64,000 nucleotides of DNA. Source: Candidatus Microgenomates bacterium (lineage in GTDB: Bacteria > Patescibacteriota > JACPGU01). Every line of letters starts with the position of its first letter. Position 1 is the first letter of the stretch. A program made the position numbers and the translations under genes. The notes under the pieces are model-generated. The model saw nothing but the letters and a program-made list of their open reading frames with translations. It did no database searches and had not been told where the DNA came from. Of the stretch, positions 4,181 through 27,864 are shown piece after piece. Location of the stretch: assembly GCA_016188915.1 (NCBI GenBank), contig JACPGU010000002.1:241211-305210 (forward strand). The letters run 5' to 3'.

Positions 4181-5980
4181 ATGAATATTCGCAATGTCGC
4201 TATTATCGCGCACGTTGACCATGGCAAAACTACCCTGGTTGATGCTATGCTTCGCCAGTCGCATACCCAGCTTTCCAAAGAAGCATCTGGGGCTGATTTG
4301 ATTATGGACTCTAACGAGCTTGAGAAAGAAAGAGGCATTACTATTTTTTCCAAAAACGCCTCTATTGTGGTGGATCAAAATGTTGGTGGAAAAGAAGAGA
4401 AAATAAAGATCAATATTATTGATACTCCCGGCCACGCGGACTTTGGTGGCGAGGTAGAAAGAGTTTTGAATATGGCGGACGGCTGTCTGCTTTTGGTGGA
4501 CGCCAAAGAAGGTCCGATGCCACAGACGCGTTTTGTTTTGAAAAAAGCTTTGCAGATGAAATTGAAAATAATCGTTGTCATCAATAAAATTGATAAACCA
4601 GACGCCAGAACCAATGTGGCGTTGAACAAAACTTTTGATTTGTTCGTGGAGTTGGGAGCCGACGATCAGACTTTGGATTTTCCTATTATTTATTGTGCTT
4701 CCAAACAGGGCAAGGCTGGCTGGGAACCTCACTTGGAGCATATGACGAGCATAGAACCTATCTTTGAGGCTATCTTGAATCATATTCCAGAGCCAAAAGG
4801 CGACACGGGAAAACCCTTTCAAATGTTGGTGACAACGATAGCGGCCGATACTTTCAAGGGTCGCATTGCCACCGGTCGTATTTATAACGGCCAGATTAAA
4901 TCTGGCCAAGATATTATTCACATCAATCGTTTAGGTGAGCAAAAAAAATATCGCCCCACTTCTTTGATGACTTTTTTGGGGTTGGGCAAAGTAGAAGTAA
5001 AAGAAGCGCAAGCCGGCGATATTATCGCTATCTCTGGTATTCCCGATGCCACTATCGGAGAGACTATTGCCGATAGTTTGAGCCCTGTGGCCCTACCCCT
5101 TTTGGCGATAGAAGAGCCGACAGTCAAAATGAATTTTGGCATCAATACTTCGCCTTTTGCGGGGAGAGAGGGACAATTTACCACTAGCCGACAGATTCGC
5201 GAGAGACTTTACAAAGAATTGGAAACAGACATGGCCTTGAGGGTGGAAGATGCGGATGGCAATAGCTGGACAGTTTCTGGACGTGGCGAACTGCATCTGT
5301 CTATTTTGATTGAGAGAATGCGTCGGGAGGGTTATGAATTGCAAGTGTCTCGACCACAAGTGATTATCAAAGAAAAAGAGGGTAAAAAAATGGTGCCCTA
5401 TGAACAGGTTTTTGTTGAAGTGCCGGAAGAGCATAGTGGCGCTGTGATCCAAAAATTAGGCTCTCGTCGTGGTGAATTAAAAGATATGCGAACGGATAAT
5501 GGTATTACTTCTCTAGAATTTGTTATGCCAACACAAGGACTCTTTGGCTATAGAACAGAATTTTTGACCGATACTAGGGGGCTGGGCATTATGAATTCTA
5601 TTTTTCATGAATACCGGGTAGATCCTGGCAGTTGGCAGGAAAGAGAATGGGGATCGCTGGTGGCGCATGAAACGGGAGAGACCAATATGTATGGTTTGCT
5701 TAACACACAAGAGAGAGGAACGCTTTTTTTGGGGCCAGGAGTGCCAGTTTATCGCGGTCAAGTGGTGGGCAGGCACAGCAAAAATAGCGATCTGTGGGTT
5801 AATGTTTGCAAAACCAAACAGCTTTCCAATGTTCGCTCTAAAGGAGAAGGCGTTTCCGAACATTTTGACAAGCCGAAAGAAATGGGACTGGAAGACGCTA
5901 TTGAATATATTTCATCTGATGAATTGGTAGAGATTACTCCGAAAAATATTCGTATTCGCAAAATGGATCTAAATGAGTAA
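4181..5980 (+). CDS. typA: translational GTPase TypA/BipA
   Basis: The N-terminus MNIRNVAIIAHVDHGKTTLVDAMLRQS carries G1-G5 motifs and TypA-type C-terminal domains. The protein is 599 aa. Confidence 0.95.
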   Translation: MNIRNVAIIAHVDHGKTTLVDAMLRQSHTQLSKEASGADLIMDSNELEKERGITIFSKNASIVVDQNVGGKEEKIKINIIDTPGHADFGGEVERVLNMADGCLLLVDAKEGPMPQTRFVLKKALQMKLKIIVVINKIDKPDARTNVALNKTFDLFVELGADDQTLDFPIIYCASKQGKAGWEPHLEHMTSIEPIFEAILNHIPEPKGDTGKPFQMLVTTIAADTFKGRIATGRIYNGQIKSGQDIIHINRLGEQKKYRPTSLMTFLGLGKVEVKEAQAGDIIAISGIPDATIGETIADSLSPVALPLLAIEEPTVKMNFGINTSPFAGREGQFTTSRQIRERLYKELETDMALRVEDADGNSWTVSGRGELHLSILIERMRREGYELQVSRPQVIIKEKEGKKMVPYEQVFVEVPEEHSGAVIQKLGSRRGELKDMRTDNGITSLEFVMPTQGLFGYRTEFLTDTRGLGIMNSIFHEYRVDPGSWQEREWGSLVAHETGETNMYGLLNTQERGTLFLGPGVPVYRGQVVGRHSKNSDLWVNVCKTKQLSNVRSKGEGVSEHFDKPKEMGLEDAIEYISSDELVEITPKNIRIRKMDLNE

Positions 5981-6036: not shown

Positions 6037-6495
6037 ATGGATATTGGCAGGGTTTTATTATCTTGGGAAACCAAGGATCAAAAAAGAGATCTTGACGCGG
6101 TCAAGATTATAATTGCTTTTGTTGTTATTGTGCTAGCGGCGGCTTGGGCGTTTTTTTCCAAACAATGGCTGACTGGTGGCACTTTTATCGGCGCGGTTTT
6201 GGTTTTGTCCTGGTATTTAGCGATGGGGCAAAAAAATATCGCCATCAGTATTACCGATAAAGGATTGATTATAGACGGCAGTTTTTATTCTTTTTCCGGG
6301 CTGAAAAATTATTGGGTTTCAAGAGAGGGAGTAGCGTATTTTGTTTCTCAATCAAAGCTTGCCTCTATTATTTCTTTACCCTTGGGAGAAACGCCAGCTG
6401 ACAAGATCTTTTCTTTGATCCCCAAAAATATTGTCAAAACTGAAAGTCAAAATGCCGATTTGGCCGATAAGGTAGCCAGGCTATTGCACAAATAA
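6037..6495 (+). CDS. hypothetical membrane protein (2 TM)
   Basis: The 152-aa ORF has a strong RBS (aaaGGAGGaatATG) and two hydrophobic helices. It has no recognisable family. Confidence 0.5.
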   Translation: MDIGRVLLSWETKDQKRDLDAVKIIIAFVVIVLAAAWAFFSKQWLTGGTFIGAVLVLSWYLAMGQKNIAISITDKGLIIDGSFYSFSGLKNYWVSREGVAYFVSQSKLASIISLPLGETPADKIFSLIPKNIVKTESQNADLADKVARLLHK

Positions 6496-7915: not shown

Positions 7916-9340
7916 ATGGCACAAAAAAAGAATACCAAAATTTTTGCCGATTATGATCAGCGCTACCAGGAGCGTTATGGTTTTGCCGATGATGCTACAT
8001 CCTATACTCATTTGGGGAAGCCTGGTATAACGCGCGAGACCATTATGGAGATTTCTAAAATAAAAAAAGAACCAAAGTGGATGTTGGAAAAAAGACTGAT
8101 AGCCTATGATATTTTTTTAAAAAAACCCTTACCCAAATGGGGCGGTGATTTGTCAGGAATTGATTTTGGCAAGATTTATTATTACATTAGACCGAGCGAA
8201 AGAACGGAAAAAAAATGGCAAGATGTGCCGGACTATATCCGCAATACTTTTGATAAATTGGGCATCCCAGAGGCGGAAAAAAAATTTTTGGCAGGCGTGG
8301 GAGCGCAATATGAATCAGAAATGATGTATCATTCTATCCAAAAAGATTTGCAGAAACTAGGGGTTATCTTTCTCTCGCCTGATGAGGCATTAAAACAATA
8401 TCCAGATTTAGTCAAAGAATATTTCGGCACCGTAATCCCGGCATCTGACAACAAATTCGCGGCCTTAAATAGCGCTGTTTGGAGTGGTGGATCTTTTATC
8501 TACATTCCCAAAGGAGTCAAAGTAGAGATGCCCTTGCAGACATATTTTCGTATCAATTTTGCCTCCGCTGGCCAATTTGAAAGAACGCTGATTATTGCTG
8601 ATGAAGGATCGGAGATGCATTATATTGAAGGTTGTAGCGCGCCGATTCATTCAACTGATTCTTTGCACTCGGCAGTAGTGGAAATCATTGTCAAAAAAAA
8701 TGCCAAAGTGCGCTATACCACTATACAAAATTGGAGCCGTAATGTTTATAACCTCGTCACCAAAAGAGCGGCAGTTTATGAAGGTGGCAGAATGGAATGG
8801 ATTGATGGCAATCTAGGCTCAAAATTGACTATGAAATATCCTTCCGTCTATCTTTTGGGTGAAGGGGCGCATGGCGAGATTTTGTCTCTCGGTTTTGCCG
8901 GAAAAGGTCGTTGTCAGGATAATGGAGCCAAGGCTGTCCATGCCGCGCCTCGCACTACATCCTTGGTACGCGCCAAATCCATCGCGCGCGATGGTGGCAT
9001 TACTTCTTATCGTGGTTTGGTCAAAATAGAAAAAGGAATGAAAAATTGCTATGCCAAGGTGCAGTGCGACGCTTTGTTGGCAGACAGTAAATCAGTTTCT
9101 AATACTTATCCCACTATGGATATTAGAGAAAAAGATGCAAAAGTAGAACACGAGGCTTCCGTCTCCAAAATAGGAGAAGAGCAGCTTTTTTACCTTAAGT
9201 CGCGTGGTCTGACAGAAGAGGCGGCCATGCACTTGATCGTGGCGGGTTTTTTGGAGCCAATAGTTTCCGGTTTGCCGATGGAATACGCCATAGAATTGAA
9301 TCGTTTGGTGGAACTGGAGATGGAAGGAGCGGTGGGGTAA
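7916..9340 (+). CDS. sufB: Fe-S cluster assembly scaffold SufB
   Basis: The conserved SufB core is present (FIYIPKGVKVEMPLQTYFRINFASAGQFERTLIIADEGS...CSAP). Confidence 0.9.
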   Translation: MAQKKNTKIFADYDQRYQERYGFADDATSYTHLGKPGITRETIMEISKIKKEPKWMLEKRLIAYDIFLKKPLPKWGGDLSGIDFGKIYYYIRPSERTEKKWQDVPDYIRNTFDKLGIPEAEKKFLAGVGAQYESEMMYHSIQKDLQKLGVIFLSPDEALKQYPDLVKEYFGTVIPASDNKFAALNSAVWSGGSFIYIPKGVKVEMPLQTYFRINFASAGQFERTLIIADEGSEMHYIEGCSAPIHSTDSLHSAVVEIIVKKNAKVRYTTIQNWSRNVYNLVTKRAAVYEGGRMEWIDGNLGSKLTMKYPSVYLLGEGAHGEILSLGFAGKGRCQDNGAKAVHAAPRTTSLVRAKSIARDGGITSYRGLVKIEKGMKNCYAKVQCDALLADSKSVSNTYPTMDIREKDAKVEHEASVSKIGEEQLFYLKSRGLTEEAAMHLIVAGFLEPIVSGLPMEYAIELNRLVELEMEGAVG

Positions 9341-9351
9341 TTTACTTAATT

Positions 9352-9918
9352 ATGAAAAAGCAGAAAAAAGAACAATCAGAAAAAGAAATCATTCCAGAGA
9401 AGGTCGCGGAATTTTTTATGGCGACAAAAAAAAGTCAAGAAAAAAATCTAGCTTTTAGTTGGGGCAAAGATGATAGTTTTGAGCAGAGTATTAAAATATA
9501 TCTAGATGGCAAAGAGTCAAAGGTTTGCCTTACTGGTATTTTCGCAGGCTCTGATTTGATGAAAAAAAAGCTGCATTTAGAAATTGTAGCCGCCTCTCCC
9601 AAAACGCAGGCAGAAATTTTGCTCAAAGGCGTTTTGGAAGACCAGGCAGAATTAAATATCGCTGTGAGATTATCTATTCTCAAAAAATCAATTGACGCGA
9701 AAGTCGATTTACAGGCAAAATTTTTGCTTTTGTCTGAATCGGCGCGTGTTCTCATTACTCCTTCTTTAGAAATAGCAGAAAGTAATATTTTGGCCGCTTC
9801 GCATGCTGTAGCCATCGGCTCTTTGGATATGGATATGATTTTTTACATGGCTTCTCGAGGGATAAGCATAGAAAAAGCCAAAGAATTATTGAAAAAAAGT
9901 TTTCTATCGGTAGGATAA
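9352..9918 (+). CDS. sufD: SufD-like protein, short form (C-terminal SufD domain only)
   Basis: The C-terminal region FLLLSESARVLITPSLEIAESNILAASHAVAIGSLDMDMIFYMASRGIS matches the SufD C-terminus. The protein is only 188 aa. Confidence 0.6.
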   Translation: MKKQKKEQSEKEIIPEKVAEFFMATKKSQEKNLAFSWGKDDSFEQSIKIYLDGKESKVCLTGIFAGSDLMKKKLHLEIVAASPKTQAEILLKGVLEDQAELNIAVRLSILKKSIDAKVDLQAKFLLLSESARVLITPSLEIAESNILAASHAVAIGSLDMDMIFYMASRGISIEKAKELLKKSFLSVG

Positions 9919-15892: not shown

Positions 15893-18800
15893 ATGGTGAA
15901 AAAACATTCACCAAAGGGCAAAAAAGCGCGGATCGGCGACGCTTTGTTCACTTTGAGAAAAAGAGGCAAAAGCCCCTGGTTTTTTGCTGTTTTTTTAATT
16001 GTTTTATTTTTAATAGGACAATTAACGAGCAAAGCCTATGCAGCCAATTTTTATCCCAATCTTTGTTTTGGTACTGCCGATAGCAAAAAAGCGGTCGGGC
16101 AGATTAAAAATAGCGCGTCTGATCAGACCCCTTCAGAATTTGCAGTAACAATAGACGAAGAGAACGTGACATTGGATTGCGCGCAATTTCGTGATGAGGG
16201 AAAATCCAGCAGAGTGCGCAAGGTGCAGGAAGCAACGCTAAAGATTTTTTGGAGTACGAATACAGATAGTATTGGCGAAGGGGCAAAAGCGAGTTTTTGG
16301 CAAACAAAGAAAGCTTTGGCGGCCGATGAAGAGACTACGACAGAAATTGTTAGCGAGAAAATAACAGAAGAGATAATTGCTCCGGAACAAATAGAAAACG
16401 TAATTTCTGGCCAGACAATAGGAACAACAGAGCCGATAGAAGATACAGTTTCCGATCAAGACGCGCAAATAAATAAGGCAACTATCGCTATTTCTTATAC
16501 TTTGGATAATGCCATTTGGCAAGATTTGGCAAATGTTGGGATAAATAATCTTGCGACAGAATTTCCTCTAAATCTCAAAGATTCAAGCGATATCGCCAAT
16601 TTCCATTTGCGTGTCACTTCAATCGGAGATTTTGGTCAAAATTTGGTTTTGTTAGACGGTTTTGCCATTAGCGCTGTATTCCAAAACGATTTTAGCGATG
16701 AAGAAATAGAGGCTTTACCTAGGGTAGATATTGGCGAAGAACTTTTTGTCGCGCCCAAAAAAGATTTCCGGGCAGATGAAGCAGTGGAATTTGAAATCAA
16801 AGGCTTTCAAGATGCGGGCACTTCGCAAAACCCAACTGCTTCTCTATCTGAAGCCCGAAGTATTAGTATTGCAAATCTTAAATCTCCCGCCCACCTTGTT
16901 GCGCAAGGTGTTGTGGGCAGGCAAATCTCAAATCTTCAATATATTTTCCCAGCTCATGCTGAAGAAATCACGGCTGGCGCAGTGCAGGTTTTGACCGCTG
17001 AAGTTTATGATCCTATTGGCAACACTGGAACGATAACACCTTTGGTGCAAGAAATAGGAGGAACGACCAAGATCATTGTCAACAAGCCCACTCGTGGATT
17101 CCGTCCCGGCAGGTATCGCTTGCATCTGGAAGTTTTGGATTTGGCTTCCAGCCAAATTCTTATTTCCGATCAAAATTTTACTTGGGGAGTTTTGGCTATC
17201 AACCTTAACAAATCGGTATATTTGCCCTTTGAAAGTGCTTATTTGCAAATGGGAGTGCTAGACGATCAAGGTTCTACCATCTGCAATGCTAATTTAAAAT
17301 TGGAAATAACAGATCCTTTGGGTGGGTTTACGATTTTGACGACCGCTTCTGGGTCGATTTCTTTAAGTGATCAATGTGATAAAAATAATGTGACGGACAC
17401 ACCCGATTATTTCGCTTATTATACAACCGGGGATCTCGGTGTCTATCAAATGACGCTGACCAATCTTACCAATCTTTATTCCGTTACAGACACTTTTGAG
17501 GTCAGAAACTATGCGCCGATGACGATAGAAAGAATCTCGGCCACGCGCATCAATCCCTTTAAGGCCAATTATCGAATGATTTTTGAATTGCGTGCCAACG
17601 AGGCTTTCTCCGGTGCTTTTTCTGAAACTCTGCCGGATAATTTTGAAGTAATTGATCCGACTATTAATAATGATACGGCTTACGATTTACTAATAACTTC
17701 CGGCGACAAAAAAATTATTTCTTGGAATCTCAGTCTCAATCGCAACCAGAGAAAAACCATTACCTATACTTACGATTCACCTGATGTTTCTCCTCAGCTT
17801 TACTTGGCAGGACCAGCTTCGGCGGGTACGATTTTTACCGAAACCAGAAATTGGCAGATCGCATCCGACGCTGCTTGCTCTTCTAACGGTACGGGCAATT
17901 GGAGTAATGGCGCCACATGGTCAGGATGTACGGGAACGGGAGGCGTGCCGGCGGCAGATGATACTATCACCATAACTGACGGTCATGCGGTAACATTGGA
18001 CACCACGGCCACCGTCGCGGGGCTTACTCTCTGCGACTCGGCGTGCAATGCCGATACTTCTTTGACCCATAGCGGGAGCAATGCCCTGACAGTCAATGGC
18101 ACGGTGACCATCAATGGTGGCGCCGGCGCCGGCGACAACACGCTCTGGACTATCAACGGTGGTTCGGCCACCGTTTCGGGAGCAATATCGTATAATCCGC
18201 AGTCTACGACTGGTGGTCGCGATGCCAAAATAGCACTATCCACCGGTACGCTCAACGCCAACGGAGGAATCGTCTTTGAGAATACCGCCGGCTCGGAAGA
18301 CAACCAAATGCTGGCGATGACCAGCACCGCGACTGTCAATCTCAAAGGGAGTATCAGCAATCAAACTCTTGCCGATATTCAGCCGGGGACGACGAGTACC
18401 TTTGTCTATATTGATAGCGCGGCGGCGCAGACGGTTGTCTTTGACGCGACCAGTTCCACCTACGCCAAGCTGACTTTCAGCAACACGCACGCTAGTGGCG
18501 TAACGCTTGGCGCGGCGCTTACCGCTACCAATACAACGGGGGACGTCAATGTCCTGCACGGAATATTTGTAACGGGCGGTTACAATATGACTGGTACCGG
18601 TTCCAATACGCTAACTATGAGCAACGGCTCGCAATTTGATCAGACGGGTGCTACTCTCATCAGCAGTTTCGCCGGTCTTTCCACTAGCGCGACGAGCACC
18701 TACCGACTTTTGACCACCAACGCCACTTTTTCCATGGCGACTTTGATCTATGGCAATGTGGTTGTTTCGCCGCAGGCCAACAATGTGGCGGTGACGCCCA

Positions 18801-21800
18801 GTTCCGGCACGCTGTCTATGCAGGGGTATCTGACGTTGGGAGGAGTGGGCGCCTATACCGGTATCACTTTAAATATTGACACTTCCGATCCGACCTTCAA
18901 TGTAGATGGCGATACGACGATAGGCGCCAACCATACATTGATCTTGAGCGCGACGGGGACAGCTACTTTCGGAGGAAGCTGGACGAATGCTGGCACCCTA
19001 ACCCACTCCTCCGGCACAGTCACTTTTGACGCGACCGACACGGGCAATACTATCAACAACAATTCTTCATCTTTTTACAATCTCAAGCTCAATGGCTCGG
19101 GCGGAGAATGGTCGGCGCTGACCAATACCTTGACTATCGCCAATGACCTCACAGTATCGGCCGGTACGCTTAATAATAGCGCTGGTACAGCCGACATTAC
19201 GGTTAACGGCAATGTGGCTTGTAATGGTACTTGCGGCACTGTCAATCTCACTTCCGGCACTTTCCTGCAAAGTGTGACGACCAACAAAGCTTTCGGCACC
19301 AATGTGGCGGTTGGCACTAATTGGATTTTTAACAATCTCACTTTCACCGGCACTTCGGATACTATCACCACCAGCTCTACCGGCACCGGCACTATTGAGG
19401 TCAAAACCAATTTGACGATTTCAACGGCTACCACTTTGGACGCGGGCAACCGCACCTTCATCCTTTCCGCGGCCTCCACCACTCCCGCCACTTTCACCGG
19501 CACTTTGACGGGTAATACTTCCATCTTTCGCTACACCGGCGCGGGCAACACCACTATTCCGGCCAGCACCGGGTACAGTACGGTTCAGCTCTATCCGGGC
19601 GCTAATTCCGCCATCTTCACTCTCGATTCTGGCACATTCACTCTGTCGGGAGATTTCATCGCGGGCGGAAATTCTTCTTACACCGGCACCACTGTTACGC
19701 TCGGCGCGAACAATCCAACGATGAATATCACGGGCGACTTTACCGTTTGCGCCTCTTCTTGTCCTGAAATGACTTTCACCAAATCATCTAACACTATTAC
19801 TCTAAACGGCACAGCCAATACCAAGACTATCACTGACAACAACACGACCAAGCAAGACCTTGGGAAAATCGCTATCGGCAACGCCTCGGCTGCCAAAATC
19901 GTCAATATGGGCTCTACTTTGAAATTGGAGACGCTCAATATCACTGCCAACGCCACTTTTTCTTTCAACAACGGAGCCTACACTTTGACTATTACCGGTA
20001 CCGGCACGCCATTAACCAAAACCGGTACCTTTACGGCGACCACTGGCACGACGACCTATGTTGGTAATGGCGCGACAACTATTACGGCGGCCACTTACAA
20101 CAATTTACAGATTTTTCCCGGTGGCGCCTCCGTTACTCACACCTTGGCTTCCGGCACTTTCACTATCGGTGGCGATTTGGATATCGGCGGGAATGCCAAT
20201 GGCGCTTCCACTGTCGTTACCGCTGGCGCGAACAACCCGACCATTGGTTTGACGGGCAATCTTGTGGTCTGCGCGTCCACTTGTTCCAACCAGATGACTT
20301 TCACCAAATCTTCCAATACTTTAACGTTGAATGGCACGGCCAATACCAAGACCATCACCGACAACAATACCACCAAGCAAGACCTCGGGGCTTTGGCTAT
20401 CGGCAATGGCGCAACGGCCAAACATATCGGGCTTGGCTCCAATATCAAGGCCACTTCCGTCAATATTACCGCTTCCGCTTTTTTTGAGCCGGGCGCCTAT
20501 ACGGCGACTTTGACAGCCAACGGCACGCCTTTTACCGTCTCCGGCACTTTCACGCCCGCCACTTCTACCATCGAATACGCCCCCGCTTCCACGACCGGTG
20601 TTACGGTAGCCTCCACCACCTATCATCATGTTATTTTCAATAAAACCTCCAACACTTTTTCACTGACCACATCCGGCATTACTACCGATACCGCTAATGG
20701 CGGTGGAGATTTGACTATTTCTGCCGGAACACTAGACACTGTTTCCGGCTCTAATTACCCGATTTCTATTGGGGGTTCTTGGACTAATAGCGACACCTTT
20801 ACCGCCAATTCTGGCACTGTTACCTTCACCTCGGTTAATACTGGAGAAACGCTTTCCGGCACATTGTCCGGCGCTTCTAGTTTCAATAACATAATTTTTA
20901 ATGGTTCAGGCGGAGAATGGACGCCAGGTTCAGCTGTTAATTTGAATGGCGATTTGACCATGACGGCCGGCACTCTGCTCGGCACGCAAAATATTACCGT
21001 CGCTGGCGGAGACGTGACTGGTGATGGCGCTATCACTCTTACCGGCGGGACATTCAAAGTGACGGGCGCTTCCGGCACGGGTTTTGGCGGGGCGACAGCT
21101 TGGAGTTTTTCCTCCCTTACTTTTGGCGATGGTGCTGATAGCGCGACGACGACCGCTACCGGCTCCGGTGGGATAACGGTTTCTTCTGTTCTGACCATTG
21201 ATGCCACTCATACTTTGGACGCGGCTGGTAAGATATGGACACTTTCCGGAACAACTGACCCCTTTGTTAAAACGGGAACTTTTACTCCTAATACTTCTAC
21301 TTTTAAATTTACCGGCAATGGCGCGACCAATATCCCCGCCACCACTTATTACAATTTGCAAGTTTTTCCCGGCGGAGCAGTCACCCATACCTTGGGCGCG
21401 GGAACTTTCACCATCAATAATAATCTGGATCTAGGCGGTAACACCAACCCGGCTTCAACAGTAATCACGGCGGCGACCAATTCTCCGACGGTGAACATTA
21501 CAGGTAATTTGACGCTTTGCGCCACTACTTGTTCCAATCAGATGACCTTCACCAAGGGCGGAACAATTACTTTGTCTGGCGCGGCTAATACCAAGAGCCT
21601 GACTGACAACAACACGACCAAGCAAGATCTGGGCGATATCACTATCGGCAACGCCTCCTTGGCCAAAATCATTCAGCTTGGTTCGTCGATCAAGGCGACC
21701 TCCATCAATATTACGACCAATGCAACGCTTGACGCTAACGGGACGAACACTATTACTTTGACCGGTACAACTACTCCTTTCACTACTAACGGCGCTTTTA

Positions 21801-23233
21801 CTTATTCCACCAGTACCGTGGTTTTCACCGGCAACGCATCTTTTACCATTCCGGCAACCACTTATTATAATTTAACTTTTAGTCCGACCGTGGTGACGAC
21901 CGGCAAGACCTATACTTTTGGCGGAGCAGTGGCGGTCAATAGCGCCTTGGATATCAATCCGGACGCGGCTACCAGTCTTTCTTTGACGGTCAATCTCGGT
22001 GGCGCGCTCACCGGCTCGCCGGCTGTCACCGTTAGAAGGCAAAATTCGGCGGCTTCCGTTTTGGATACTACGGCCGGCAATTATGGTATTACGGCTACCA
22101 GTTTTGACATCCAAGCAGGCGGGACAGTGACACTTAACGCTTCTACTGTTTCGGCTTCCGGCGCGGTGACCATTGCTTCATCGGGGACGTTAAATGCCAC
22201 TTCTGGCACTTTCAGTATTGGTGGCAATTACACGAATAATGGCACTTTTTCTAGCAACAACGGCACCGTTACCATCAACGGCTCTTCGCAGCAGACTTTG
22301 GCCGGAACGATGACAACGACCAACGCTTTCAAGACTCTGACAATTACCAATAGTAGTGGCGCCGATCCCGATGCTTCGCCTTCGGTAATTTTTTCGGCCG
22401 CGGCGACCGCCACCACTTTCAACGCGGTGACGGCCTCAACCAAAATTCGCTTCTTGGCGGGCGCGACCTATACTTTTACCACTTTCAATGTCAATGGCCA
22501 GGCGACCGGTACGCGCGTTCAGCTCCGTTCCTCTTCCTCGCCGACCGCTTGGTTGCTTGTCGCTAGTGGCAGTCCGGTGGTTTATAATACCAATCCCAAA
22601 GATTCCAATGCTTCCGGCGGGAGCAGCATTGATGCTTCAGCCGCATCCAATTTGGACGGTGCGGGCAATACCAATTGGAATTTTGGAGGACTTTCTACTG
22701 ATATTGTAGACAGTAATGGCGATCCAGTGGGTAGTCCAGCGGTAGCTATGGATAACGCTTCTTTAGGTTTTGCTTGCCAGTCTGCTACTGGTACCTTGGG
22801 GGCGGCTTCGCAGAAAATGCGTGTTTCCAATAGCACGGGCAATCCTTCATGGACCCTAACTATCGCGCCGACTGATGGGGCCACTACGACTTGGACGGCT
22901 GGCGCGCCCTTGTATGATTTTAACGACGCGACAGCTTCTGGCTGTTCGGATGGGATAGACGCTGATGGAGTGGGTGGACAGCTAACGATGAACGCTTCGG
23001 CAGGGACGGTGACGCCACAGGGCGGTTGTTCTTCTACGGGAATTACAAAAGGTAATTCAGCTGCTTTTGTGCAGGGCACTACTGACAGCGTCACCATTTT
23101 GTCGGCTAGCGGTCTGGCGGAAACTAGTTGTTATTGGGATTTGACAGGCGTTTCTTTGAGTCAATCAATTCCGCAAGAGCAAACTATCGGCAATTACTCT
23201 TTGAATATGACGATTACTTTGACTGCGAATTAA
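15893..23233 (+). CDS. giant (2446 aa) secreted Thr/Gly/Asn-rich tandem-repeat surface protein with a WxL-like C-terminal domain
   Basis: The protein has an N-terminal signal anchor. A beta-helix-like low-complexity region carries about four ~180-aa tandem repeats (NNPT.N.TG...CAS.C..MTFTKSSNT.TLNGTANTKTITDNNTTKQDLG). The C-terminal ~190 aa are homologous to the 238-aa protein at 11921..12637. Confidence 0.8.
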   Translation: MVKKHSPKGKKARIGDALFTLRKRGKSPWFFAVFLIVLFLIGQLTSKAYAANFYPNLCFGTADSKKAVGQIKNSASDQTPSEFAVTIDEENVTLDCAQFRDEGKSSRVRKVQEATLKIFWSTNTDSIGEGAKASFWQTKKALAADEETTTEIVSEKITEEIIAPEQIENVISGQTIGTTEPIEDTVSDQDAQINKATIAISYTLDNAIWQDLANVGINNLATEFPLNLKDSSDIANFHLRVTSIGDFGQNLVLLDGFAISAVFQNDFSDEEIEALPRVDIGEELFVAPKKDFRADEAVEFEIKGFQDAGTSQNPTASLSEARSISIANLKSPAHLVAQGVVGRQISNLQYIFPAHAEEITAGAVQVLTAEVYDPIGNTGTITPLVQEIGGTTKIIVNKPTRGFRPGRYRLHLEVLDLASSQILISDQNFTWGVLAINLNKSVYLPFESAYLQMGVLDDQGSTICNANLKLEITDPLGGFTILTTASGSISLSDQCDKNNVTDTPDYFAYYTTGDLGVYQMTLTNLTNLYSVTDTFEVRNYAPMTIERISATRINPFKANYRMIFELRANEAFSGAFSETLPDNFEVIDPTINNDTAYDLLITSGDKKIISWNLSLNRNQRKTITYTYDSPDVSPQLYLAGPASAGTIFTETRNWQIASDAACSSNGTGNWSNGATWSGCTGTGGVPAADDTITITDGHAVTLDTTATVAGLTLCDSACNADTSLTHSGSNALTVNGTVTINGGAGAGDNTLWTINGGSATVSGAISYNPQSTTGGRDAKIALSTGTLNANGGIVFENTAGSEDNQMLAMTSTATVNLKGSISNQTLADIQPGTTSTFVYIDSAAAQTVVFDATSSTYAKLTFSNTHASGVTLGAALTATNTTGDVNVLHGIFVTGGYNMTGTGSNTLTMSNGSQFDQTGATLISSFAGLSTSATSTYRLLTTNATFSMATLIYGNVVVSPQANNVAVTPSSGTLSMQGYLTLGGVGAYTGITLNIDTSDPTFNVDGDTTIGANHTLILSATGTATFGGSWTNAGTLTHSSGTVTFDATDTGNTINNNSSSFYNLKLNGSGGEWSALTNTLTIANDLTVSAGTLNNSAGTADITVNGNVACNGTCGTVNLTSGTFLQSVTTNKAFGTNVAVGTNWIFNNLTFTGTSDTITTSSTGTGTIEVKTNLTISTATTLDAGNRTFILSAASTTPATFTGTLTGNTSIFRYTGAGNTTIPASTGYSTVQLYPGANSAIFTLDSGTFTLSGDFIAGGNSSYTGTTVTLGANNPTMNITGDFTVCASSCPEMTFTKSSNTITLNGTANTKTITDNNTTKQDLGKIAIGNASAAKIVNMGSTLKLETLNITANATFSFNNGAYTLTITGTGTPLTKTGTFTATTGTTTYVGNGATTITAATYNNLQIFPGGASVTHTLASGTFTIGGDLDIGGNANGASTVVTAGANNPTIGLTGNLVVCASTCSNQMTFTKSSNTLTLNGTANTKTITDNNTTKQDLGALAIGNGATAKHIGLGSNIKATSVNITASAFFEPGAYTATLTANGTPFTVSGTFTPATSTIEYAPASTTGVTVASTTYHHVIFNKTSNTFSLTTSGITTDTANGGGDLTISAGTLDTVSGSNYPISIGGSWTNSDTFTANSGTVTFTSVNTGETLSGTLSGASSFNNIIFNGSGGEWTPGSAVNLNGDLTMTAGTLLGTQNITVAGGDVTGDGAITLTGGTFKVTGASGTGFGGATAWSFSSLTFGDGADSATTTATGSGGITVSSVLTIDATHTLDAAGKIWTLSGTTDPFVKTGTFTPNTSTFKFTGNGATNIPATTYYNLQVFPGGAVTHTLGAGTFTINNNLDLGGNTNPASTVITAATNSPTVNITGNLTLCATTCSNQMTFTKGGTITLSGAANTKSLTDNNTTKQDLGDITIGNASLAKIIQLGSSIKATSINITTNATLDANGTNTITLTGTTTPFTTNGAFTYSTSTVVFTGNASFTIPATTYYNLTFSPTVVTTGKTYTFGGAVAVNSALDINPDAATSLSLTVNLGGALTGSPAVTVRRQNSAASVLDTTAGNYGITATSFDIQAGGTVTLNASTVSASGAVTIASSGTLNATSGTFSIGGNYTNNGTFSSNNGTVTINGSSQQTLAGTMTTTNAFKTLTITNSSGADPDASPSVIFSAAATATTFNAVTASTKIRFLAGATYTFTTFNVNGQATGTRVQLRSSSSPTAWLLVASGSPVVYNTNPKDSNASGGSSIDASAASNLDGAGNTNWNFGGLSTDIVDSNGDPVGSPAVAMDNASLGFACQSATGTLGAASQKMRVSNSTGNPSWTLTIAPTDGATTTWTAGAPLYDFNDATASGCSDGIDADGVGGQLTMNASAGTVTPQGGCSSTGITKGNSAAFVQGTTDSVTILSASGLAETSCYWDLTGVSLSQSIPQEQTIGNYSLNMTITLTAN
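19690..21700 (+). repeat. in-frame tandem coding repeats (~540-bp period, about four copies) inside the giant gene
   Basis: A recurring DNA block containing accaagcaagacct occurs at ~19850, ~20390 and ~21625. The protein-level repeats are listed above. Confidence 0.7.
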
Positions 23234-23302
23234 TGATTTACCTATTGTTGCTGTGAGGACTGATGTTATAATAAAAACAAGTTTTATAATTAATTTTGTT
23301 CT

Positions 23303-23446
23303 ATGCCAAAAAACAAAAACAAAAAAAGCCAAAAAGGAGATTTTTGCGTGGGCGATTGTTGTTTTCGGAAAGTATATTGGGCGACTTTGGCCGTTTTGGT
23401 TTTACAGATAGCAATTCTCTTGGTTTTCATTTGGAAGTTTATATGA
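23303..23446 (+). CDS. 47-aa ORF (MPKNKNKKSQKGDFCVGDCCFRKVYWATLAVLVLQIAILLVFIWKFI) duplicating the signal-anchor region of the downstream giant gene
   Basis: Its TM segment and DNA (ttttacagatagc..) are paralogous to codons ~25-45 of the 23462..27748 gene (FLIVVLVLQIAVLAILV). It lies 16 nt upstream of that gene. It is not on the ORF track because it is under 60 aa. Confidence 0.3.
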   Translation: MPKNKNKKSQKGDFCVGDCCFRKVYWATLAVLVLQIAILLVFIWKFI

Positions 23447-23461
23447 AATAACTTCTAGCAA

Positions 23462-26400
23462 ATGAAATGGATAAAAAACAAAAAAAGCTATCTTTCCCCC
23501 CTTTCTTTTTTCAAAGAAAAAAGCAATCAAATTTATTCTTTTTTGATTGTTGTTTTAGTTTTACAGATAGCTGTTCTTGCTATTTTGGTGCCATTAGTGC
23601 GGGGAGTAAATTCTACTACTCACACCAGCCAAGAAGATTTTGCGGCAGGCGCTATCTCTCAAACAGCAGTGACTAATAGCTCTGGCGGTGAGATTTCTTT
23701 GGCTACTGTTTCTTCCAGTTTTGCCCAACAATCTTTCGGCACTAACTCTCTCGGCGAAGTAGGAGTCAAGGTCAATGATTTATACGCCGCCTATAGCCCC
23801 AGTCTAGTCCACGATTCCTTAGGCAATACCTACGTTGCCTACTTTTTCGCCGGTTCAACTTGGGATATTGTAGTCAAAAAATATGATTCTGCCGGAGCGC
23901 AAGATTTGACTTTTGGCACAGCTGGCACTTTGACTATTTCATCTTCTGCTGTTGCCGGCGGGATTATGCCCAATACACCATCTTTGGTAGTGGACAATAC
24001 CAACAGTAATCTCTATGTCGCCTGGGATGCCGGAGCGCCTCTCGCCAGCGCTAAAACTATTTATGCCAAAAAGTTTTCTTTTGCTGGTGTTATTGACACG
24101 AGTTTTGGCACGAGCGGGCTTTTGACTGCCGGTAGTAATAACAAATCTATCAGCACGGATCATAGTTTTTCTATTAGTATTGATACCAATAGCAAACTCT
24201 ACATTGCCACGAATGGTACGAGCGGGACGAGCCTCACAGTCAAAAGATACACTACGGCCGGAGCCCTGGATGCTAGCTACGCGACATCCGGAACATTAAC
24301 AGCCGTTTCTACCGGCAACGCGGTCGGTGACCCATATATGGTAGTTAATGGTGGCGACAATCTTTATCTCCTTTACTACGAAAATATTTCCGGTCCGCAC
24401 AAAATCTACGCCAGGAAATTCAATTCTTCGGGAGTAACGGTGACCAGCTTTGGCGCCAGTGGAATCTTGGAGATCGCTTCTTCCACGCAGGCATTGCGAG
24501 ATCCCGTGGTAGTTTTCGGTGGTTCAGAGAACGGCTATGTCGTTTGGACGGAAGCGGCCAACAATGATATTTACGCCAAGAAATTTTCCACGGCCGGAGT
24601 TTTAGACACGAGTTTTGGCACGAGTGGTATGGCAACAATAACTACAGCTAGTAATATTCAGAGGAAACCGGCGCTGGCCCTAGATTCCAGTGAAAATATG
24701 TATATCGCCTGGGAAGATAATCGCGGAGCGGATTACAGCATTTATACTAAAAAATTCAATTCCTCTGGCACGTTGGTTTCCGGCTTTGGAACGGCGGGAG
24801 AATTAGCCACTTTCGATAATAGCAACAATCAATTTTATCCGGCGATTATGACTGATGCCACCGGTGATATTTATCTTGCTGCTTCTGATGATCGCTCTAC
24901 CGGCAATACCAAATATGATTTGTATATAAGAAAATTCAATTCCTCCGGTACGCGATATAACGATTATTCACCGGCCACAGCAGATGATGTGGCGATCAGC
25001 GGTGAATCTTCTAGCCAAGAACATCCTGCTTCCGCTACCGATTCTGACAACAATGTTTATTTCGTTTGGCGCAATATGGCAACGGACGCCAACGGCGATA
25101 TTTATATGAAAAAATACAGCGCCATGGGCTTTCTCTACGACGGTACATCCGCTTCTCCGGAATTTGGCACCGACGGGCAGGTCTTGATTTCCTCTGCCGG
25201 GACGAACGCTGCCCAGCGCGCGCCACGGATAACGCTAGATAGCACTGATAATATTTATGTCTCTTGGTATGACAATCGTGATGGGGCAAATTACGACGCT
25301 TACGTGAAAAAATTTAGCAGTAGTGGCGCGCTAGACGCAACTTTTGGCTCATCAGGAGAGTTAACGGTGGAGGCAGGGATTTTAATCGGCGCGGGCGAAT
25401 CCGATGAACTACCGACAGAAATGGGGCTGGGGGTGGATTCCTCTGACAATATCTATGTTGCTTATTACAAAGATTTGGCTCTGGATGGCGCTGATTACGC
25501 GGTCTATATCAGGAAATACTCTTCGGCCGGCGTTATCGTTTCGGCCTTTGGCAGTTCCGGCACTTTGACGGTAGCAAGTAGCAGCCTAGCCGATACCTTT
25601 CCCACGCTGACTATTTCTTCCGCTAATAATCTTTATGTCGGTTATGTGGAATGGGAGCTGGACTTCTCTGACTCTAAAGTGAAGATTAAAAAATATAATT
25701 CTTCCGGGACGATAGATAGCGCTTTTGGTACGAGCGGGACCATCACTTACGATAATGTTGGCGATATTGATCGCGAGGCGAGGCTGGCTTTGGATTCTAC
25801 CGGAGCCGTTTATCTGGCTTCGGGCAATGTAGATGATCTCATCGCGCCTACTGCCTACCAAATATTCCTGACCAAATATGATTCAGCTGGCGTTATCGTT
25901 ACGAGCTTTGGTACCGGTGGCACGATCACTTTGGCGACTTCAGCCAATGCGACCATCTATCCTTCTATCGCCACAGATTCGGCAGACAATATCTATGCTA
26001 CTTGGACGCAAACGGTAGCCGATAATGATATCAAGCTTCGCGTTTACAATACTGCCGGAACGCTCAATACTAATGTTGGCACTAACGGAGTTTTGGTTTT
26101 GGACTCTACAACGGCCAATGCCAATCAGGTAGCTATAACCGTTGGAGCAGGAGACGCTATCTATTTTGCTTGGTCGGACGGGGCGATATCTGGCGCCAAA
26201 TATGATTTCACTGGCGGTTCGACTGTCTATTATACTTCTGGTACTTTTGAATCGGCCACGATTGATACTGGCTCTAGCACGCAAGTTTACGGCAATTTGT
26301 CTTGGTCGGTAACGACGCCAGTCGGCACATCGGTTTTGTTCCAGGTGGCTACGGCCACCACTGATAGCGGCTATGTCTATCGCGGACCGGGTGGATTTTT

Positions 26401-27748
26401 GGACACCTACTACACCACTTCCTCTGGTCATAATATTTGGTCAGGGGCGGACAGCCAGAGATATTTCCGCTACAAAATGATTTTGGCCACGACCGATGCT
26501 ACGGCCAGTCCTAGTGTAGCCAGTGTTACTATCGCTTATAACCTGCCACCAAACGCCCCTTCTTCTTTAGGGCCGATGGCTTCTATCGACGGAACGGCTT
26601 CTTCTAACACCAGACCTAACTTCTCTTTTACCTTGACCGACAATGATACATCCGACACGGTTGGCTATCGTATTCAAATTAGCCAAGTGAGCGACTTTTC
26701 TTCCAGTATCGTTGACTATACTTCGGCTATGGCCACTCAGGGGACAGCTTCTTTTTCAGTTGGACAGGCTACAGGTAGTGGTAGCTATACGACGGGGTGG
26801 CTTAATCAGACTTTGTCTGAAGGAAATTATTATTGGCGCGTCGCTGCTATTGACGAAAACAATCTTATCGGTAATTGGACGACAGCCAATTCAGGCAATG
26901 TTGCTTTGACAATTTCTTTGCCACCATCCTATACGGCACCTATCGAATCAACCGGCGGAGGTGGCGGGGTAGAACCCAAGGCCGCCACGCCAGAGAAAAA
27001 GGCCACAGAGACCTTTACCGATAATTTTTCCATAAATATTAATGACGATCAGATCAATACAACTAATCTGGAAGTTACTTTGCGTTTTAGTGCTCCTTCT
27101 TCTGCTACGGAAGTGGAGATTTCTAATTATCCTGACTTCAAAGAATCTACTCGCGATCAATTCGCTAGAGAGAAAAAATGGTCTATCTGTGCCGACAAAG
27201 ATACAGGCGCGGTCGGAAAAGCCAACATCAAAACCCACAATTGTTCAGAGGGCGAGTACAGCGTCTATGCTAGATTTTATAATGCCAAAGGAGAAATGTC
27301 GGCAGTTTTCAGAGACACCATCTCTTATCGTCTGAATACGAAAGATATAACTGAGGGGGCAAATCAAGCTATCCCAGAGAAAGGTGGCACGCCACAAAAT
27401 ATTAGTGAGACAATTAGCCCCAACGATAATACTGGTAGTCAAACAGAGATTTTGCCGGCGCTGGTTTTTGTTCCCGACATCATCTTTTTCAACAATATGC
27501 GAGTGGGTTCCAATGGGGTGGAAGTCAAGGCTTTGCAGGAATTTTTGAATAAAAACGGTTTTACGGTAGCTGATAATGGTCCTGGTTCTTCCGGCGGTGA
27601 AACGCAGTATTACGGCGCGTTGACTGCCCGGGCAGTGGCTAGATTTCAAGAAGCCAATGCTGATCAGATTTTGACTCCCTTGGGCTACACCAAGGGTACG
27701 GGTATCTTTGGTCCCGCGACGAGAAATTATATTAATTCACTGAAATGA
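23462..27748 (+). CDS. giant (1428 aa) secreted protein with ~15 delta-60-like repeats, Ig/FN3-like modules and a C-terminal peptidoglycan-binding (PG_binding_1-like) domain
   Basis: Repeated units of ~45-60 aa (IYAKKF.S.G.LDTSFGTSG.LT...) follow a signal anchor. The C-terminus VGSNGVEVKALQEFLNKNGF...YYGALTARAVARFQEAN resembles a PG-binding domain. Confidence 0.8.
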   Translation: MKWIKNKKSYLSPLSFFKEKSNQIYSFLIVVLVLQIAVLAILVPLVRGVNSTTHTSQEDFAAGAISQTAVTNSSGGEISLATVSSSFAQQSFGTNSLGEVGVKVNDLYAAYSPSLVHDSLGNTYVAYFFAGSTWDIVVKKYDSAGAQDLTFGTAGTLTISSSAVAGGIMPNTPSLVVDNTNSNLYVAWDAGAPLASAKTIYAKKFSFAGVIDTSFGTSGLLTAGSNNKSISTDHSFSISIDTNSKLYIATNGTSGTSLTVKRYTTAGALDASYATSGTLTAVSTGNAVGDPYMVVNGGDNLYLLYYENISGPHKIYARKFNSSGVTVTSFGASGILEIASSTQALRDPVVVFGGSENGYVVWTEAANNDIYAKKFSTAGVLDTSFGTSGMATITTASNIQRKPALALDSSENMYIAWEDNRGADYSIYTKKFNSSGTLVSGFGTAGELATFDNSNNQFYPAIMTDATGDIYLAASDDRSTGNTKYDLYIRKFNSSGTRYNDYSPATADDVAISGESSSQEHPASATDSDNNVYFVWRNMATDANGDIYMKKYSAMGFLYDGTSASPEFGTDGQVLISSAGTNAAQRAPRITLDSTDNIYVSWYDNRDGANYDAYVKKFSSSGALDATFGSSGELTVEAGILIGAGESDELPTEMGLGVDSSDNIYVAYYKDLALDGADYAVYIRKYSSAGVIVSAFGSSGTLTVASSSLADTFPTLTISSANNLYVGYVEWELDFSDSKVKIKKYNSSGTIDSAFGTSGTITYDNVGDIDREARLALDSTGAVYLASGNVDDLIAPTAYQIFLTKYDSAGVIVTSFGTGGTITLATSANATIYPSIATDSADNIYATWTQTVADNDIKLRVYNTAGTLNTNVGTNGVLVLDSTTANANQVAITVGAGDAIYFAWSDGAISGAKYDFTGGSTVYYTSGTFESATIDTGSSTQVYGNLSWSVTTPVGTSVLFQVATATTDSGYVYRGPGGFLDTYYTTSSGHNIWSGADSQRYFRYKMILATTDATASPSVASVTIAYNLPPNAPSSLGPMASIDGTASSNTRPNFSFTLTDNDTSDTVGYRIQISQVSDFSSSIVDYTSAMATQGTASFSVGQATGSGSYTTGWLNQTLSEGNYYWRVAAIDENNLIGNWTTANSGNVALTISLPPSYTAPIESTGGGGGVEPKAATPEKKATETFTDNFSININDDQINTTNLEVTLRFSAPSSATEVEISNYPDFKESTRDQFAREKKWSICADKDTGAVGKANIKTHNCSEGEYSVYARFYNAKGEMSAVFRDTISYRLNTKDITEGANQAIPEKGGTPQNISETISPNDNTGSQTEILPALVFVPDIIFFNNMRVGSNGVEVKALQEFLNKNGFTVADNGPGSSGGETQYYGALTARAVARFQEANADQILTPLGYTKGTGIFGPATRNYINSLK

Positions 27749-27791: not shown

Positions 27792-27864
27792 TCGGGATAG
27801 GCAGACTTGAACTGCCGACCTCCACGTCCCGAACGTGGCGCGCTACCAACTGCGCTATACCCCG
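27792..27864 (-). tRNA. tRNA-Pro with anticodon CGG (73 nt, no encoded CCA)
   Basis: The minus-strand sequence is CGGGGTA-TA-GCGC-AGTTGGTA-GCGC-G-CCACG-TTCGGGA-CGTGG-AGGTC-GGCAG-TTCAAGT-CTGCC-TATCCCG-A. The acceptor has one G-U pair. Confidence 0.85.

Follow-up and report, generated by a model that had tools for sequence, protein, structure and literature searches.

What is a 47-codon open reading frame (ORF) doing directly in front of a giant gene whose own 5′ end it resembles? The question is raised by a 64,000-nucleotide (nt) stretch of contig JACPGU010000002.1, which in its full length is referred to here as the window; coordinates are window positions unless another contig is named. The small ORF at 23303–23446 (+), hypothetical protein HYV44_02420 in the NCBI annotation of a metagenome-assembled genome (MAG) labelled 'Candidatus Microgenomates bacterium', sits between two tandem giant surface-protein genes encoding 2446 and 1428 amino acids (aa); the second of these is called the giant gene below, and its product the giant protein. 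An initial annotation of the window had described the ORF as a copy of the signal-anchor of the giant gene, and had left open whether it was a remnant of a recombined alternative 5′ cassette, a duplicated translation-start region or a co-expressed small membrane peptide. The ORF translates exactly as quoted there, and the 1428-aa gene does start at 23462, beyond a 15-nt spacer. Our analysis points to a partial tandem duplicate that has become a gene in its own right, and we tentatively favour the possibility that this gene shares a transcript with the giant gene and encodes a small, tail-anchored protein that probably serves the giant protein as a partner in the membrane.

The relationship between the two reading frames is visible at the nucleotide level. 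Their ATGs are exactly 159 nt, or 53 codons, apart, and a repeat search recovered two pairs of direct repeats at this same offset: the AAAAACAAAAAAAGC copies, which match at 15/15 nt, and a block coding for the core of the transmembrane (TM) segment, which matches at 23/26 nt and includes a 14-nt exact core (Table 1). One ungapped, in-frame alignment places ATG on ATG, KNKKS on KNKKS and VLVLQIA on VLVLQIA. When the small ORF was aligned in this way with giant codons 1–47, a comparison that the initial annotation had proposed, 67/144 nt matched, and 159 nt was the best of all offsets in the window (67 matches, against a mean of 37.7, a standard deviation of 5.7 and a next best value of 62). 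A degenerate 27-mer of the TM core, allowing up to three mismatches, has just two sites in the 64 kb, where 100 shuffles gave an expectation of 0. Smith–Waterman comparison of the small protein with 390 window ORFs likewise ranked the giant protein at the top with a score of 54 (next 43, mean 21, standard deviation 5.2), which was reached by 0/5000 full shuffles and by 6/5000 shuffles preserving the hydrophobic block (p ~0.001). The nucleotide blocks and the shuffle tests show that the resemblance is not generic hydrophobic codon usage, and the first block carries it beyond giant codons ~20–45, to which it had initially been assigned.

Codons 10–24 of the small ORF and the giant gene show no detectable similarity, the sequences upstream of the two ATGs match at background level (20/69), and beyond the TM core on its 3′ side the similarity is at a level that 572/2000 shuffles reach, which is not significant; a unit extending past the TM core was therefore dropped from consideration. 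L001 and L002, assembled independently from SRR12113420 and SRR12113422, are 100% identical over this region, which rules out an assembly artefact. Copies that are adjacent, on the same strand, colinear and similar above chance are what a tandem partial duplication leaves behind, and on these grounds a partial tandem duplicate of the giant gene 5′ end, comprising the start codon and the n- and h-regions of the signal sequence, is the best-supported description of the small ORF. With the ATGs, KNKKS and TM core all in register at 159 nt, the initial suggestion of a duplicated translation-start region fits as an account of where the ORF came from. No other small upstream ORF mimicking a downstream N-terminus was found in the window or in 10 other loci, and a genome-wide habit of this kind was dropped.

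Whether the copy is a gene could be addressed by comparison with a single related locus. The giant protein has one close relative among 5.8 billion proteins, P0003, which is 72–73% identical and encoded on contig CAYHEQ010000009.1 (L003), where the gene order is as in the window: upstream giant gene, the locus in question, then an AI-2E transporter gene and L25. Gene callers had left a 349-nt gap on L003 empty, and this gap contains an intact 46-codon ORF at 4698–4838, with the product MPKQKKKTKDGVFCVSDTCFVRIYWTALVVLFLQIIILGLFFWKFF. The two small proteins share 27/46 identical residues, and their ORFs differ by one in-frame 3-nt indel and stop at the same position. Differences fall 17/8/23 on codon positions 1/2/3, and the proportions of non-synonymous and synonymous differences are 0.27 (pN) and 0.71 (pS), the latter indicating that synonymous sites are near saturation between the window and L003. 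The resulting pN/pS of 0.38 compares with 0.28 for the giant gene overall and 0.42 for its first 45 codons; the other two frames of the small ORF gave 0.65 and 1.59. Fisher's test of synonymous versus non-synonymous change was significant in the annotated frame (p = 1.9e-5) and in no other, and in neutral simulations with an equal number of substitutions the frame stayed open in 15% of cases and 27 identical residues were kept in 0/20000. Judged on this one orthologue, the small ORF evolves as a protein-coding gene for a small membrane protein does, and by its pattern of substitution it is a genuine gene under purifying selection, not a decaying remnant. Features conserved specifically in the small-ORF pair are F-C-V-x-D-x-C-F (C15, C20), an interfacial Y-W and a terminal W-K-F. 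Coding on the opposite strand or in the other frames was considered and dropped, the minus-strand ORFs not being conserved in L003; so was readthrough or fusion of the small ORF into the giant gene, whose frame it shares, given that its TGA and a second in-frame stop within the spacer (TAG, 23456–23458) intervene and that the two are out of frame in L003.

In the databases searched, homologues of the small protein are confined to the window and L003 genomes. A word-indexed search of the 5.8 billion proteins returned only the query itself. An exhaustive phmmer search of 1.84 billion representatives returned the query and two spurious hits, P0122 and P0123, which are translated from long tandem repeats in DNA (17 and 5 stretches, respectively); their scores sum across repeat copies, and they are thus false positives. 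Back-translated pattern scans of JGI metagenomes and IMG/VR yielded no homologue of the small ORF, the small protein matched nothing in Pfam or NCBIfam, and an Rfam search of the locus was likewise empty. Searching with the giant protein extended the picture little: the sole hit among GTDB species representatives was the L003 contig (under the name L004), and the hits in JGI metagenomes were all distant delta-60 repeat proteins of 23–38% identity, without the small ORF. L019 and L020, related through the C-terminal 700 aa of the 2446-aa protein, carry no small-ORF homologue. The two genomes bear clashing labels, 'Candidatus Microgenomates bacterium' for the window MAG and 'uncultured Candidatus Saccharibacteria bacterium' for the L003 relative, and one of the two (that of the window MAG or that of L003/L004) is probably wrong.

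Both copies occupy syntenic positions in both genomes, so the duplication is older than their split. In an alignment of the two small ORFs with the two giant N-termini (window and L003), the invariant residues are M1, K5, K7, K8, V31, L32, L34, Q35, I36 and L39. The stop of the small ORF aligns with giant residue 48, the predicted −1 position of signal peptide cleavage; the small protein thus corresponds to the n- and h-regions of its neighbour without the cleavage site. Over the 39-nt TM core, the window paralogues (23393–23431 versus 23552–23590) match at 28/39, the highest value of six pairs, and the window and L003 orthologue pairs at 21/39 and 26/39. The window paralogues moreover use identical codons at 11/14 shared residues, where 5.7 are expected (P = 0.002). 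These figures hint at a short gene-conversion tract between the window copies; the numbers are small, and one orthologue pair reaches 26/39.

The product has at most about 50 codons and one predicted TM helix, as small membrane proteins do. Its most hydrophobic Kyte–Doolittle 19-mer spans residues 29–47 (score 2.66), after which no residue remains; drawn with other TM boundaries, the helix leaves about three residues (KFI) behind it. From the single sequence, AlphaFold2 predicted one helix at residues 14–46, with a mean per-residue confidence (pLDDT) of 93 for residues 31–40 and 91 for residues 41–47. The flank N-terminal to the hydrophobic segment carries a charge of +5 in the window and +4 in L003, and the positive-inside rule then predicts an N-in orientation with a C-terminal anchor, that is, a tail-anchored protein. 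Signal and TM helices do not usually have a Gln at their centre, as here at position 35, and polar residues there promote helix–helix association. Proteins shorter than ~45–50 aa are not targeted co-translationally; the signal recognition particle (SRP) delivers them post-translationally to SecYEG/YidC (PMC12648545). The shortness of the small protein would preclude co-translational targeting and imply post-translational insertion.

The giant protein begins with a Lys-rich n-region (flank charge +5 in the window, +4 in L003), an h-region, FLIVVLVLQIAVLAILV, with a Kyte–Doolittle score of 3.16, and a c-region, PLVRG, before VNS. In both giant orthologues the core is followed by P-L-x-x-(G/A) and VNS.THTS, which by eye fits the −3/−1 rule and places the predicted cleavage at the same point, PLVRG↓VNS in the window and PLTYA↓VNS in L003; the predicted mature giant protein begins VNSTTHTSQEDF. 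Judged in the same way, the giant N-terminus has the features of a type I signal peptide, cleaved by signal peptidase I (SPase I). The small protein does not, since WKFI-stop (WKFF-stop in L003) follows directly on its h-region. A plausible SPase site in both giants makes it more likely that the copied segment is a signal peptide that can be cleaved than that it is a signal-anchor; of the initial description, the paralogous segment stands and the anchor label may be imprecise.

Conservation extends to the DNA in front of the small ORF. A conserved block, TGnTATAATAAAAACA, holds the extended −10 element TGtTATAAT, which reads TGcTATAAT on L003 (4657–4665); the −35-like TTGTTG has its L003 counterpart in TTGTTA (4638–4643), and the 16-nt spacing to the −10 is kept. 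Around the start codon, 18/20 aligned positions of the block TTTGTTCTATGCCAAAA are identical to L003. Both blocks are near-invariant despite the near-saturated synonymous sites, and TGnTATAATAAAAACA reads as a candidate −35/extended −10 promoter. A generic promoter scan missed TTGTTG because only 3/6 of its positions match the consensus, and found no alternative promoter before the giant ATG. Given a promoter-like block in this place, the small ORF would be the first cistron and the giant gene the second. Together with the intact L003 orthologue and the coding-type substitutions, the conserved candidate promoter supports the initial proposal of a co-expressed small membrane peptide as the present state of the ORF. 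No Shine–Dalgarno motif precedes either the small ORF or the giant ATG; because 16/21 long window genes lack a Shine–Dalgarno-like motif within 25 nt upstream of the start, this absence is uninformative for both, and the organism appears to be largely Shine–Dalgarno-independent.

The DNA between the small ORF and the giant gene is less constant. The L003 spacer (4839–4974) measures 136 nt owing to a GC-rich structured insertion of ~106–121 nt that is absent from the window. The insertion folds into an outer stem, CCGUAGGGG/CCCCUACGG, around two hairpins (−43.5 kcal/mol, z = −2.7), and the first hairpin, GGGCAACC-cuugc-GGUUGCCC, resembles an intrinsic terminator in that U5 comes directly after it. 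Rfam gave no match for the insertion, which is present in a single copy among the loci compared; it may be a terminator, an attenuator or a small element that has inserted there. The two starts in L003 are 277 nt apart and out of frame. No significant structured RNA leader was found in the window (z = 0.18). The compact arrangement is probably ancestral, and tight coupling between the small ORF and the giant gene is not a feature shared by the two genomes.

The explanation we favour would assemble these elements as follows. The 5′ end of the giant gene, with its start codon and the n- and h-regions of its signal sequence, would have been partially duplicated in tandem before the two genomes diverged, and the copy, ending at the predicted SPase site of the giant protein, would have become a free-standing, non-cleavable version of the signal sequence. 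A transcript starting at the conserved −35/TGnTATAAT promoter would carry the small ORF first and run into the giant gene. The 47-residue single-pass product would keep its Lys-rich, C-x4-C-containing N-terminus in the cytoplasm and its TM segment at the C-terminus, with ~3 residues outside. After post-translational insertion, its helix may pair within the membrane with the signal or anchor helix of the giant protein through a face, V-L-x-L-Q-I-x-x-L, that is invariant in all four sequences and would hold the Gln mid-bilayer; alternatively, the small-protein TM may compete with the giant helix at the translocon or signal peptidase. Either way, the small protein would tune how the giant surface protein is exported, processed or retained. 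The paralogy, the retained reading frame and the conservation of the promoter block are read directly from the two loci, and the topology is a prediction from the sequence; transcription, translation, the TM–TM interaction and its effect are what we infer from them. Several points weigh against this explanation. The evidence for conservation is one pairwise comparison over 46 codons, in the two genomes that carry the locus, and gene callers left the small ORF uncalled in three of four assemblies. The terminator-like hairpin of L003 may mean that co-transcription or tight coupling is not conserved. The conserved TM core could simply reflect common constraints on membrane insertion, and cleavage of the giant signal peptide was assigned by eye only.

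Other readings of a conserved small membrane protein at this position have to be weighed. The small protein may have a function independent of the giant protein, for instance as a modulator of another membrane complex or as a membrane-active, toxin-like peptide, its similarity to the giant protein being a historical trace of its origin. Purifying selection and predicted topology fit such a role equally well, the terminator-like hairpin past the small ORF in L003 fits a separate transcription unit, and residues 10–26 (FCVxDxCF..YW) and WKF are kept in the small-ORF orthologues but have no counterpart in the giant protein, features that the copy has acquired for itself. However, in both genomes the small ORF has kept its place just before the giant gene (15 nt away in the window), none of the four sequences departs from the TM face with its Gln35, and no family match was found in Pfam or NCBIfam; we regard an independent function as somewhat unlikely. 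As for a toxin, the small protein resembles the type I toxins Hok, Fst and TisB in having no more than ~50 aa, one hydrophobic helix and charged residues, and differs from them in its N-terminal charge cluster and its conserved syntenic place before the giant gene; no minus-strand promoter-like site that would point to a type I antisense RNA was found by the generic scan of 22800–24000, nor any Rfam match. A more specific version of the favoured explanation, in which the small protein is a dedicated stand-alone signal-peptide mimic that docks on or competes with the giant signal sequence through the Gln face (the site being the translocon, signal peptidase or the lipid phase) and so gates export, cleavage or anchoring of the giant protein, strikes us as quite improbable in that exact form. 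Among known systems, the small protein has a likeness to a type I Sec signal peptide with a long basic n-region: it lies gap-free on the giant n- and h-regions, at 47 versus 48 residues, and a long Lys-rich n-region is also found in the upstream 2446-aa protein. Unlike such a signal peptide, the small protein is a separate product without a mature domain, c-region or cleavage site, in which WKFI-stop replaces PLVRG↓V, and it has a conserved C-x4-C/YW segment that the giant protein lacks.

Three further alternatives are less probable than an independent function. If the small ORF were a cis-acting leader, the act of translating it, and not the peptide made, would govern translation of the giant gene, by termination–reinitiation across the 15-nt spacer or by stalling of the secretion-monitor type. 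The co-orientation, the narrow gap, the promoter upstream of the small ORF, the lack of a Shine–Dalgarno motif or separate promoter before the giant ATG and the conserved C-terminal F-x-W-K-F are all compatible with this. Monitoring substrates (SecM, MifM, VemP, ApcA/ApdA/ApdP) lie immediately upstream of sec or yidC genes, have 80–200 aa, begin with a topogenic signal that precedes a hydrophilic domain of 40 aa or more, and end in a conserved arrest sequence that stalls the ribosome (PMC7897499). The small ORF shares with them a short, co-oriented position directly before a possible target gene and a Sec/YidC-type hydrophobic segment, but its downstream gene encodes a delta-60 repeat/PG_binding_1 surface protein, it has 47 aa, its hydrophobic segment lies at residues 29–47 with no hydrophilic tail, and it has neither a RAPP-like arrest motif nor a stem-loop sequestering a Shine–Dalgarno sequence. 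With no such hydrophilic stretch behind it, the C-terminal TM segment would still sit in the ribosome tunnel when translation terminates. Constraint acts at the protein level over the whole peptide rather than at its end alone, the coupling geometry is lost across the structured spacer of L003, the leader RNA of the window has no significant structure, and a missing Shine–Dalgarno motif is normal in this genome; a leader is unlikely on this balance. That the ORF is a non-functional relic, a leftover duplicated 5′ end still open by chance, would agree with the lack of homologues beyond two genomes, with its omission by most gene callers and with a middle third that has no similarity to its paralogue, but is doubtful, and more so than a leader, when synonymous sites are near saturation and the ORF is nonetheless intact in both genomes with the same stop position, an in-frame indel and a coding-type distribution of differences; the neutral simulations and the Fisher test speak against it as well. 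Least probable by far, and very improbable in absolute terms, is the alternative 5′ cassette of the initial annotation, in which recombination between the repeats, 159 nt apart, would delete one unit, fuse a Cys-containing N-terminus to the giant protein and generate phase-variable N-termini. Both direct repeats (a perfect one of 15 nt, and one of 26 nt built around 14 perfect nt) keep the reading frame exactly, and an in-frame fusion would follow if the unit between them were lost; the codon identity and TM-core match of the window copies hint at exchange between them. Against this, the fused versions that the initial annotation proposed to look for did not appear, L001 and L002 being identical and unfused; the L003 copies, 277 nt apart, out of frame and with an insertion between them, show that the in-frame relation is not conserved; the small ORF is under purifying selection, and its stop and C-terminus are themselves conserved; and the gene-conversion signal is weak, orthologue pairs reaching 26/39.

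Returning to the favoured explanation of a small membrane partner, close analogues in organization exist. KdpF, CydX, AcrZ and MgrB are small membrane proteins encoded beside a larger partner (reviewed in PMC12648545). Like them, the small protein has fewer than 50 aa and one TM segment, is easily missed by gene callers, is encoded beside a large envelope-protein gene and is too short for co-translational SRP targeting. Unlike them, it belongs to no known family, has its TM segment at the extreme C-terminus and is predicted to carry a Cys-containing cytoplasmic head of ~26 residues. To our knowledge, none of the classic small membrane proteins is a paralogue of the signal sequence of its neighbour. 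Bacteria also have tail-anchored proteins, such as ElaB, YqjD, DjlC and Flk of E. coli, with which the small protein shares, by prediction, a cytoplasmic N-terminal part and a single TM segment in the last ~20 residues; it is far smaller than these, its ~26-residue head has no folded domain, and its sequence is unrelated. The small ORF belongs with the bacterial small membrane proteins encoded beside large envelope-protein genes, and its origin is unusual.

Table 1 Positions of the small ORF, the giant gene and the elements discussed in the text
Feature	Position	Strand	Description
−35-like hexamer TTGTTG	23245–23250	+	16 nt upstream of the −10 box
Extended −10 TGtTATAAT	23264–23272	+	predicted promoter element; transcript start predicted at ~23279–23281
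Start-codon block TTTGTTCTATGCCAAAA	23292–23311	+	conserved versus L003
Small ORF	23303–23446	+	47 aa, product MPKNKNKKSQKGDFCVGDCCFRKVYWATLAVLVLQIAILLVFIWKFI
Repeat copy 1a AAAAACAAAAAAAGC (KNKKS)	23315–23329	+	in small ORF
Repeat copy 1b, TM-core block GTTTTGGTTTTACAGATAGCAATTCT	23393–23418	+	in small ORF
Spacer	23447–23461	+	15 nt, from small ORF stop to giant ATG
Giant gene	23462–27748	+	1428 aa; delta-60 repeat, beta-propeller type, surface protein
Giant signal sequence, codons 1–48	23462–23605	+	paralogous to the small ORF
Repeat copy 2a (KNKKS block)	23474–23488	+	in giant gene
Repeat copy 2b (TM-core block)	23552–23577	+	in giant gene

The assignment of the giant protein in Table 1 follows from its match to TIGR02608 (delta-60 repeat), which at 114.2 bits over 6 stretches lies above the curated cut-off of 76.5; its C-terminus matches PG_binding_1 (PF01471) at residues 1352–1399 (E = 1.7e-8). 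The first stretch past the predicted signal peptide, residues 50–80, is matched at 52–55% identity over 31 aa by NSFTQTTVADFNVGTKSGTTITNTSGGEVTL, part of a prepilin-like protein with the GQSLVEIVLAMGLAAILL motif that is encoded at 6369–8366 of L012. The same prepilin-like protein also matches giant residues 918–1026 at 38%, and the two matches suggest a module common to pilin-like and giant surface proteins. In the window, a tRNA gene (27792–27864, −) lies 44 nt past the giant gene stop, where L003 has a HicA/HicB toxin–antitoxin pair (9187–9854), so the 3′ flank of the giant gene differs between the genomes. On the other side, the ORF for the 2446-aa protein (15893–23233) ends at 23233, leaving an intergenic region of 69 nt before the small ORF. 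Its product has no match in Pfam or NCBIfam; its signal sequence has a long Lys/Arg-rich n-region of ~28 residues and an AYA↓A site, and its C-terminal 700 aa have homologues of 30–65% identity in Patescibacteria and on other metagenomic contigs.

The reach of these findings is limited to two genomes of uncultured bacteria, with function inferred, and the oversight of the small ORF by gene callers in three of four assemblies carries a practical lesson. If our reading is correct, the locus would be a clean natural case of the birth of a small-membrane-protein gene from the signal-sequence-coding 5′ end of its neighbour, through copying, truncation at the signal-peptidase cut point and then retention by selection. 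Should the product prove to be a signal-peptide mimic, it would be an export regulator of a new kind, acting in trans on one specific gene product and descended from the very gene it targets. Giant surface proteins of Patescibacteria, or the Candidate Phyla Radiation (CPR), are thought to mediate contact with host cells. The small ORF adds an unannotated family to the small-protein repertoire of the Patescibacteria/CPR, and its product is a candidate gene-specific accessory for the export or anchoring of such a giant protein.

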